A stretch of DNA of 64,000 nt from Flectonema sp. DT1601 (Eukaryota): contig OZ025790.1 in NCBI GenBank assembly GCA_964019425.1, positions 434,001 to 498,000 of the forward strand. The letters are read 5' to 3'. Positions 526-3,500 of this stretch are shown here, in pieces; within the stretch, counting starts at the first letter, position 1; each line of letters begins with the position of its first letter. The notes beneath the pieces are model-generated. The model was not told where the DNA came from and did no database searches. It was given only the letters and a program-made list of their open reading frames with translations. The translations under genes and the position numbers were made by a program.

Positions 526-3500
526 ATGAAGACCGCCGCCGTTATGTTGATGGGACTCACCGGGCTCGCCCACGGTCTCACCGAAGAGTACGTTCAGTCG
601 AACGCCAAGAGCATGTGGGCGTCCTTCAAGAGAGACTACAACAAGTTCTACACCCCAGCTGAGGAAGCGAGAAGGTTTCAGATCTTCCAGGACAACATGA
701 TGAAGGCCATCCGTCACGAGAAGGAGACTGGATCCAGCCACGGAGTCAACGCCTTCGCTGACTTGACCGCAGAGGAGTTCAAGGTCAACCACAACCTCCA
801 GGTTCCAGAGAAGGAGAGCCCAGCCAGCACCTACACCGCTGAGGAGATCAAGAAGGCGCAGGCCACCTCCGTTGACTGGAGAAGCAAGGGAGCCGTCACC
901 CACGTAAAGAACCAGGCTCAGTGTGGATCTTGCTGGGCGTTCTCCACCACCGGAGGAATTGAGGGACAGTGGTTCTTGGCTGGAAACACTTTAACATCTC
1001 TCTCAGAGCAGGAACTTGTTTCATGTGACAAAACCGACTCAGGTTGCAATGGAGGGTTAAGGGAGCTGTGCATTTGCCTCCTCGGGGCGCTCCTGGACAC
1101 CGGAAACGGTAGACCGAAAGATGCAGAGGCACCGACAGCACCACCAGCACCGTCAACACCACCAAACACCAACAAACCGCCGGACCCCGACAGGCGAGAA
1201 GGATGGAAGGTCCCTAACGGAGACCCAGCAACACCGCGCAAGGAACGGAACCGGAGAGCACACGCTCTCAACGGAAACGGGCCAAAGCCCTCGCCTTCTA
1301 CCAAAAAAAGGGCGAAGGGAGGATCCGAATCCTCCTCAGAGGAAGACCCATCTCTGAGAGGGATGCTCCAGGAGAGCCAGGAGCAAGCGAAGAAGGACAG
1401 GGAGGAAGCGAAGGAGCTGCGTCTCCAGATCGGTACGCTGCTGAAGCGACTCGACGGAATGGCGGAGCAGCTGAAGAAGAGCTCAGAGCAAGCGGAGAAG
1501 GAAGCCGAACGTAGGGAGCGAAGGGAACAGGTACTCCATAAGAACTACCTGGACCTCGAGGAGAGGTCGAGACGCGTCTTCGCGGAGAAGGAAAAAGAAG
1601 CGAAGGCGACGGCGACACGGGCGAAAGAAGAGACCGCACAGGCGATCAAAACATTACGCGAAGAACATGCCAAGCAGGTGGAGGCCCTGATGGCGGAAAA
1701 GACGGAAGGACCGAGGACGAAGAAAATCGTCAAGAAGAAGAAGAAGGAGGAGAAGGCGGCGGATGGCGACACCGTCATGGGCGGCGAGGAGTTGGCGGCG
1801 GTGTCCGAGGCCGACCAACTCGGCCAGACGGAAACCCACCAACTCAACGCGGAGGAGGGGAAGGAAAGGAAGGCCGCAATGACTCTGCGGAAGAAGGAGT
1901 TGGAGACGAAGGCGGAGGAGGAACTGCTGGGGAGGATGAAAGCCAGCGCGGCCCAGATCAAGTGGGAACAGGAAGAGAAGAGAGAGAAGGAGGCGACGGA
2001 AGGCTGGTCCCTACGGCAGGGGGACTGGTACTCGACAGTGAGATCAGTCGAGGAGATGGAGAAGGAGAAGCGGGGAGTGGCGTTGATGACGGCCGGTACC
2101 GCAAGAAAATGGATCGCGCGGCGGGTGGCACTGTCGGCGTGGGAGTGTCTCAGCCTGGTGACGATATCACAGGTAACGGAGACCAGTAGATCGGAACAGG
2201 TGCTCCTGGAAAAAAAGGAGGGGAAGGAAGGATCCGCGATCCAGACGAGGATAACCATCGTCTGGATCACGGATCTAGGAAAGGAGGCCCAGATGAAGGG
2301 CATTGTTGGATCGGGAGGCGTCGCTCCCACGACCGAATTGGTCGTGAGGGCGACCAAGAAGAGATGCTCGGCGGAGGACTGGAAACGATTCCAACGAAAC
2401 CCGAAGAGAGTCACAACCTGCCTGAGGGAAATGAAGGGTTTCGTGGACGGATATTTACCCAGGATAAACCCAGAAGAAGCTTCGGCCGTAGTAAGGGTTA
2501 GAGAGGAAGAAGTGGAGACCTTCCTTCGGACATCCGGAAAAGCCGGGGTTTTCGTGATGGAGAAATCCAGGAACGAAAACAGAGCTATCATCTGGCTCCC
2601 GGGCGAAGAAAAACTGGACGATGCTCTGGTGAAAGCCGAGGAGGACCCGAACTGCATCGGACTGGTGCAGAACAAAGACGGCCTGGGAATGAGGGTGAGG
2701 AGATCCGGAGAGAACACCTCCAGGAGGAAGCTGGGCATCCCAGCGAAAATGCCAGAAGCGAAGGTTAGCGGCATACCGCTGGGGATGACTGCCGATGAGG
2801 CAGTCAAACAGCTGATAGCTGAGGAGGGATGGGACGTCAGGAAGACCTGGGAAGGAGTGAGAGACGGTACCCGCTGGATGATTGTGAGGGGCCCGGAGAG
2901 GGAGACCGACACCGTTGCGGTGGGAGGGAAGCTCTGTCTTGTCGAGAAGGTGGGACAGAAGCCGAAACAAAATGGTGTGAAACGCGTTGTAGCAACACCA
3001 CCCGAAACGCGAAAAGACCCGACGGAGAACAACGGGAAGCGATACTGCAAGACCGACTTCCTGAAGTTCCATGGGAAGAAGAAGGGATCGAAGCTCTGGA
3101 GGGACGCTGGAAGATCGGATACACCGAACACACCACCGAAACCACCTCAAGCACAAACACAACCGCCACCGAAACCAACGCAACAACAGAAACCGACGGC
3201 GGGATCCTCACTGGAAGCGAGAATGGAGAGGTTGGAACTACTGCTGGCGGCTGTTCTGGAGAAATCGCAATGACTCGGAACCTCCACAACACAGAAAGAA
3301 GAGGAAGCGGCTGGACCGACACAGGACGGATTGGGGACGACAACGCAACAATGAGACTCCCTTCGGAATTCTCGGTGGCAACGGTGAATACCACGACGAT
3401 GATGAAAAACGTCGCAGCGGTGATAGCGCTGGACGCCGACATCATCCTAGTGCAAGAGACACTTCTTTCTGAAACAGAACAGAAGAAGATGCTCAAACAA

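Follow-up and report, generated by a model that had tools for sequence, protein, structure and literature searches.

A predicted HDV-like ribozyme within the ORF1 reading frame of a non-LTR retrotransposon inserted in a cathepsin gene

The retrotransposon, its host gene, and their surroundings

The window analysed here, a stretch of DNA of 64,000 nucleotides, contains a host cathepsin-L-like gene interrupted by a full-length non-LTR retrotransposon (Table 1). The target-site duplication is exactly 20 bp long (1041–1060 is identical to 8084–8103), and it ends unambiguously at 1060, so that G1061 is base 1 of the element. If the element and one copy of the duplication are removed, the host gene becomes a stop-free frame of 326 aa. 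In its present state, a single open frame (502–3273) joins the 5′ half of the cathepsin gene to ORF1.

The element has an ORF with APE endonuclease and reverse transcriptase (RT) domains, a target-site duplication, and no LTRs, which places it among APE-type non-LTR retrotransposons. Pfam matches to both domains, together with the separate ORF1, bear out the two-ORF APE-type organisation proposed in an earlier sequence-only reading of this DNA. Among solved structures, LINE-1 ORF2p comes closest to the ORF2 profile (E 4e-44); no RNase H match was obtained in the element at E 0.1. The folded part of ORF1p has no Pfam match, and a Foldseek search with ORF1 returned no match at E 0.001 or better. 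Its model is matched best by RRM domains, at a middling score (Z 7.3–7.8, rmsd 1.9–2.8 Å over 62–71 residues). The ATG of the upstream ORF in the +1 frame is part of the 3′ strand of P2, and 5 nt separate the end of this ORF from ATG1363. This ORF crosses an A-run at about 1302–1312 that could be a slippery site. At the other end of the element, the hairpin of the 3′ UTR has a fold z of −1.81 (calculated for 7990–8083).

Table 1. Positions in the window of the retrotransposon, its parts, its host gene, and a BspA-repeat gene
Feature	Position	Strand	Basis or remarks
Host cathepsin-L-like gene, 5′ half (I29 propeptide and Peptidase_C1)	526–1060	+	Pfam; in frame with ORF1
Left target-site duplication	1041–1060	+	20 bp
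ORF1 frame, from the junction	1060–3273	+	737 codons
Full-length non-LTR retrotransposon	1061–8083	+	7,023 bp; bounded by target duplication; APE and RT domains
HDV-like ribozyme fold	1061–1125	+	descriptor, pair inspection, RF00094 alignment; in-register sister conservation deduced from peptides
Predicted cut	5′ of G1061
P1	1061–1066/1089–1094		6 bp; opening pair G1061–U1094
P2	1069–1075/1119–1125		7 bp, one U–G among them
P3	1076–1078/1086–1088
L3	1079–1085		7 nt
P1.1	C1080–G1096 and C1081–G1095		2 bp
P4 core	1099–1110		GAAA loop as cap
Predicted catalytic C	C1115		in J4/2 CGAA
Upstream ORF	1121–1357	+	78 codons, +1 frame; translation putative
N-x3-H-x2-NGN motif	1249–1278	+	ORF1 residues 64–73; predicted processing after last Asn
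First element-encoded ATG	1363	+	ORF1 residue 102
Folded part of ORF1p, RRM-like domains	2005–2955	+	predicted structure, pLDDT 91
ORF2	3270–8003	+	1,577 aa; ATG overlaps ORF1 stop (ATGA)
APE endonuclease in ORF2	about 3402–4022	+
Reverse transcriptase in ORF2	about 5103–5753	+
Cys/His-rich tail in ORF2		+
3′ UTR	8004–8083	+	80 nt, without poly(A) tail; weak hairpin
Right target-site duplication	8084–8103	+	20 bp
Host cathepsin gene, 3′ half	8104–8549	+	Pfam
Ubiquitin-like/BspA leucine-rich-repeat gene	33829–34770		intact

Copies of ORF2 (12 members, several of them full length) are 98.8–100% identical, which suggests recent activity. Two small-share sequencing runs covered 6 and 5 of the 30 bins of 400–8700; only host-gene bins were covered, 1231–7878 remained uncovered, and these runs are uninformative on the element.

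The ATP synthase alpha gene of the window scores 814–888 bits against the PDB entries 8ap6, 6f5d, and 6tdu, which we take to be trypanosome and Euglena sequences, and no more than 415 bits against the other sequences compared; a euglenozoan host is thus supported. The RT tree took in 26 of the 27 chosen relatives (P0043 was omitted), among them no ingi or L1Tc elements. In it, ORF2 joins P0002 and two transcript products of Flectonema neradi in one group at 100/100. This diplonemid provides the nearest named relatives of ORF2, and proteins of Diplonema papillatum are 30–41% identical to it. Taken together, the ATP synthase alpha gene and the Flectonema neradi relatives make the diplonemid host assumed by the sequence-only reading likely. 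Beyond these, 13 related loci come from metagenomes and none from viral contigs.

Some relatives differ from the window element in the region preceding the APE domain. A 2A-like DxExNPGP motif stands directly before this domain in two distant relatives (L001:196 and L012:784). The Flectonema ORF2 products P0003 and P0004 have an N-terminal extension ahead of it, which in P0004 gives a weak match to Josephin protease (E 0.012, below the cut-off); P0004 also has the 2A-like DxExNPGP. The ORF2 of the window has neither feature.

Some other features of the window can be noted. A degenerate piece of small-subunit rRNA, which Rfam matches below gathering (E 0.002), lies at 8953–9124 and closely precedes a host ORF. 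Two host ORFs have upstream of them, at about 326–338 and 8847–8859, one and the same short motif that ends in AG-GT and follows a pyrimidine-rich tract; these sites are possibly trans-splice acceptors. In the region 42058–46701, a 113-bp unit is repeated in two arrays (12 and 14 copies, 98% alike) with a 1.8-kb spacer between them, and this spacer contains a 257-bp duplication. The major vault protein gene (53106–58341) is seen as two ORFs split by a tandem array of a 183-bp unit (16 copies, 53943–56916), perhaps an intron or an insertion.

The HDV-like fold at the 5′ end

The first 65 bases of the retrotransposon are very probably an HDV-like ribozyme, for which cleavage is predicted. All the pairings of the nested double pseudoknot (P1, P1.1, P2, P3, and P4) were found in the sequence, in agreement with the earlier description of the site. 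The six pairs of P1 with their G–U, the seven pairs of P2, P1.1, the GNRA-capped P4, and the C in CGAA were all recovered as described; the L3 loop is one nucleotide longer than had been quoted. Pairing of the +1 G and the length of P1 are within the range of the HDV-like class (G with U or C; 6–7 bp), and the core, with the conserved L3 and the C of J4/2, aligns to the RF00094 consensus. Since the duplication ends at 1060, the predicted cut site falls on its boundary, again as the sequence-only reading had stated.

A hand-written HDV-like descriptor has a single match on both strands of the 64 kb, and this match is 1061–1125. No descriptor match was found in dinucleotide shuffles of the element (n = 1,500; 21 Mb). 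The P3/L3 pattern occurs once, and none of 100 shuffles matched it. A search of 1–8000 with Rfam gave no HDV match. When RF00094 was applied to 1030–1160 (131 nt), the score was 18.3 bits (E 0.82), below the gathering threshold of 50, with an alignment that spans 1058–1127 and keeps the core in register. The aligned core together with so low a score indicates a member of the structural class and not of the viral Rfam family. The nested folding energy is ordinary (z from −0.16 to +0.85), as is to be expected because the pseudoknots are outside the nested model.

A relaxed version of the descriptor had no match in any of the 13 more distant loci (50,504 bases) and recovered the window site as the positive control; by manual reading, only L010 among these loci reaches the 5′ end. 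At L010:56–130, an apparent start after a (CA)n run has a partial HDV-like look, with a 5-bp P1, a P3/L3-like core, and an atypical J4/2, and the relaxed descriptor failed on it.

When 10–100 nt of the natural flank are included in nested folding, P1 is mostly displaced, with a probability of 0.01–0.35. Specific blocking of ribozyme folding by the target flank was considered and rejected, because pairing with the core was as extensive for 88–107 of 200 shuffled flanks. The displacement of P1, as well as the Rfam score far under gathering, would fit a fold that is a real relic, inactive or misfolded here, with a precise 5′ end of other origin. Such a relic is very improbable: all positions of the catalytic core are intact, the near-identical and partly full-length ORF2 copies speak against it, and the displacement loses its force because shuffled flanks behave like the natural one and the model leaves pseudoknots aside.

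The ribozyme also has a second role in the sequence, as bases 1061–1125 double as codons 1–22 of the ORF1 frame. The sequence-only reading, whose ribozyme stands, had missed both this in-frame coding overlap and the fixed host-gene sites described below.

In-frame host fusions, sister lineages, and the cleavage motif

Since no stop codon interrupts the ORF1 frame within the ribozyme, gene callers carry ORF1 on into the flank wherever the frame allows. The junctions of other copies, and covariation, were read in this way from predicted proteins alone, and not from the DNA of the copies. In the ORF1 cluster, seven of the ten members begin with a host N-terminus and read on through a ribozyme-coded peptide that is invariant; the remaining three are P0085, which starts at Met102, and two internal fragments. 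The peptide stands behind four different host flanks, and its first codon alone varies with the host. This confinement of host-dependent change to the first junction codon is independent evidence that the 5′ end is at G1061.

P0087 is a fusion to the cathepsin of the window, and P0057 and P0086 are fusions to a second cathepsin paralogue, the host part of which is identical to that of the window at 104 of 175 positions. All three are joined at the same codon. The other four (P0083 versus P0084, P0088, and P0089) are fused to two variants (29/34 identical) of a second host family, for which neither Pfam nor the Atlas gave a match. The element parts of the fused copies are identical at 293–299 of 299 positions, whereas the flanks have diverged much more. 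This contrast speaks for repeated insertions into the same sites; recombination could also account for shared junctions in paralogues. The cathepsin and second-family target sites have at best 13 of 20 bases alike, a level that 2.8% of 9,089 host codon positions attain as well, which lends modest support to a sequence preference of the target. Insertion may prefer fixed in-frame sites of multicopy host genes, with an in-frame share that is inflated because gene calling brings out the fused copies.

Searches with ORF1 also returned sister lineages; their counts are based on representatives of four clusters (6, 11, 5, and 5 members). P0142 and P0143 are fused to ubiquitin-like/BspA-repeat genes. 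In P0094 and P0141, which are transcript products of Flectonema, the junction lies at the same repeat position, here in a BspA-like stretch with an LRR_5 match under the curated cut-off (E 0.003); these two fusions may have arisen as chimeras of the assembly. The intact BspA gene of the window is a paralogue of the host gene interrupted in P0142 (69% over 168 columns). Similarity to this gene stops at residues 162, 80, and 101 of the sister proteins, and the predicted ribozyme starts at residues 163, 84, and 103, respectively.

The junction peptides of the sisters back-translate to P1, P3, L3, and P1.1 in the register of the window and without gaps. In two sister lineages, they force a swap of G–C to C–G in P1 and a change of the first pair from G–U to G–C; P2 is weakly tested. 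Back-translation was applied to 95,543 distinct 13-residue windows from 146 proteins, of which ten passed: five of these junctions, the start of P0125, and four background windows. P0125, a further ORF1 relative that was found blind, has six residues preceding its junction. The P2/J4/2 step has little power and lets three of the four background windows through. The compensatory changes of the sister core and the invariant peptide of the seven copies support the original ribozyme reading.

A third family (P0096, P0145, and P0146) has its called start inside the ribozyme and contains the same core in another reading frame, although the corresponding test passed nine of 93,001 windows, seven of which are background. 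The presence of the core in a second frame supports its conservation as RNA. All three representatives of this family that reach the ribozyme start within it and have no host fusion, so that in-frame fusion to a host is not universal.

Downstream of the ribozyme, ORF1 encodes the motif N-x3-H-x2-NGN. It resembles the sequence NKxMHxxNGN, after which capsid N-termini are generated in the totivirus-like IMNV and OmRV; cryo-EM of OmRV placed mature N-termini right behind two such sites, and the available text of that study gives no mechanism of cleavage (PMC7968656). Seven of the ten residues of the window motif, among them N, H, and the final NGN, are those of the OmRV CM-2 site (PMC7968656); relative to the viral consensus, it has R in place of K and A in place of M. 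Across the six frames of the window it is found a single time, and the chance of such a match per 100 residues is some 1e-6 to 6e-6. The literature searched for the motif yielded one virus paper (PMC7968656) and none that links it to retrotransposons.

The motif is invariant in a six-row alignment covering five lineages, and it is present in nine of the ten listed ORF1 proteins (in one as a variant) and missing from P0145. The distant ORF1 relative P0110 has at residues 70–79 a variant ending in HGN, and the motif may therefore be widespread in this group of elements. In the window, P0142, and Flectonema, NGNG lies at residues 71, 60, and 58, upstream of the first Met after the junction (residues 102, 119, and 290). 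A conserved motif in this position indicates that translation probably starts before any AUG encoded by the element. The open frame on its own is weak evidence of coding: 9,662 of 20,000 shuffles (48%) are stop-free through the ribozyme by chance, and 1,553 of 20,000 (7.8%) through all 101 codons.

Translation of the element and comparison with known systems

The single frame running from the host gene into ORF1 suggests that the element borrows the start codon of its host. We propose that a host read-through RNA would have two fates. If the ribozyme cuts before G1061, the product would be a precise full-length template for target-primed reverse transcription. If it does not, the capped RNA would be translated from the cathepsin AUG through the ribozyme into a host–ORF1 fusion, the host peptide would be removed at the N-x3-H-x2-NGN motif to give free ORF1p, and ORF2 would be made by stop-restart at the ATGA overlap. 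As a whole, with the cut RNA as the template and the uncut RNA as a message trimmed at the motif, this model has somewhat less than an even chance of being correct; cleavage, translation, and trimming are all predicted steps of it. More tentatively, this diplonemid retrotransposon lineage might be a parasite of host ORFs, which enters multicopy protein genes at fixed codons and in their reading frame, carries a coding ribozyme that splits transcripts, and uses the NGN motif to remove the host peptide.

Another possibility, which is plausible and still rather doubtful, is that the cut, uncapped RNA is the message. Translation would then start at a non-AUG codon in or next to the ribozyme, the motif would trim a ragged N-terminus, and the fusions would be a by-product of target preference and an open frame. 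IRES-like initiation by HDV-like ribozymes has been proposed for R2 and L1Tc (PMC6765202; PMC5814959). A non-AUG start on cut RNA accounts equally well for a motif upstream of the first Met and fits the third family well, in which the called start is inside the ribozyme and three of the four representatives have the motif. It does not, however, predict that all three types of target (cathepsin, the second family, and the BspA repeat) are entered in the sense orientation and the same codon phase, and manual reading of the junction peptides revealed no near-cognate start codon common to the fused lineages. An internal RNA polymerase II promoter at the 5′ end would be an alternative to read-through: transcription would start at or near G1061, the ribozyme would tidy the 5′ ends, and ORF1 would be translated from Met102 by re-initiation after the upstream ORF. 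Its precedent is Pr77 of L1Tc, which serves as promoter and as ribozyme alike in the group that is sister to diplonemids (PMC4035085). The close spacing of the upstream ORF and ATG1363 suits re-initiation, and P0085 is called from Met102. We consider such a promoter unlikely, since a start at Met102 leaves the conserved upstream motif untranslated and unexplained, and host–element fusions are present in the Flectonema transcript assemblies.

How uncapped, ribozyme-cut retrotransposon RNA is translated is an open question, for which IRES-like initiation has merely been proposed. The two-fate model offers a different and testable answer, and the family is a clean system to tell the borrowing of a host AUG from IRES-like initiation. 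The findings extend 5′ HDV-like ribozymes to diplonemids, present a ribozyme constrained both as RNA and as codons, and point to APE elements with a preference for certain sites in protein genes. They also bring a viral cleavage motif that is poorly understood into the mobile elements of eukaryotes, and a short tag of this self-processing kind could become a tool.

The ribozyme that is also coding sequence, the proposed in-frame targeting of genes, and the viral-type motif are new here. RHS–ingi chimeric frames were reportedly mentioned by Bringaud in 2002, which would lower the novelty of the in-frame fusion. The 5′ HDV-like ribozyme alone is already known in several APE-type elements (PMC6765202). 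The word ribozyme is absent from the text and seven searchable supplement files of the D. papillatum genome paper, which deferred the analysis of transposable elements (PMC10161547), and no diplonemid retrotransposon ribozyme was found in the literature searched, including the available text of PMC12278014 and PMC12621601. The sequence-only reading knew of no description of this kind for a diplonemid element, and none appeared in our search, which took in few subscription papers.

5′ HDV-like ribozymes are established in R2, L1Tc/ingi, RTE, and Baggins elements (PMC6765202, PMC3774820, PMC3185411, PMC5814959, PMC4035085); R2 and L1Tc/ingi are also the examples given in the sequence-only reading. 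R2 ribozymes have a P1 of 6–7 bp and a P2 of at least 5 bp (PMC3774820). RTE and Baggins are described as promoterless elements for which cleavage out of host transcripts has been proposed, and the available text of the review in question mentions for them no in-frame host fusion or cleavage motif (PMC6765202).

Like R2, the window element is predicted to be released from a host co-transcript, and cap-independent translation has been proposed for R2. R2 differs in having one ORF and a 28S rDNA target, whereas the window element has two ORFs, an APE endonuclease, and targets in protein genes such as cathepsin. The endonuclease of R2 is restriction-like.

The window element shares more with L1Tc/ingi of trypanosomatids, which are euglenozoan APE-type non-LTR elements. 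Their HDV-like ribozyme, L1TcRz, makes its cut at +1 (PMC3185411), as predicted here. Both insert in multicopy protein genes, in the case of L1Tc/ingi at a fixed site of the RHS family (PMC7563717). The RHS insertions give nonsense or frameshifted, truncated proteins (PMC7563717), whereas those of the window family keep the host frame. The ingi/L1Tc clade has a single ORF with APE, RT, and RNase H and a poly(A) tail; in contrast, the window element has two ORFs, no RNase H match, and a 3′ end without an A run. Unlike in L1Tc/ingi, its ribozyme lies inside the ORF1 frame. The coding region of L1Tc is headed by the peptide-processing signal 2A (PMC5814959), the place of which is taken in the window element by N-x3-H-x2-NGN. 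In IMNV and OmRV, NKxMHxxNGN is a viral sequence, whereas here its counterpart belongs to the ORF1 of a retrotransposon, with cleavage predicted.
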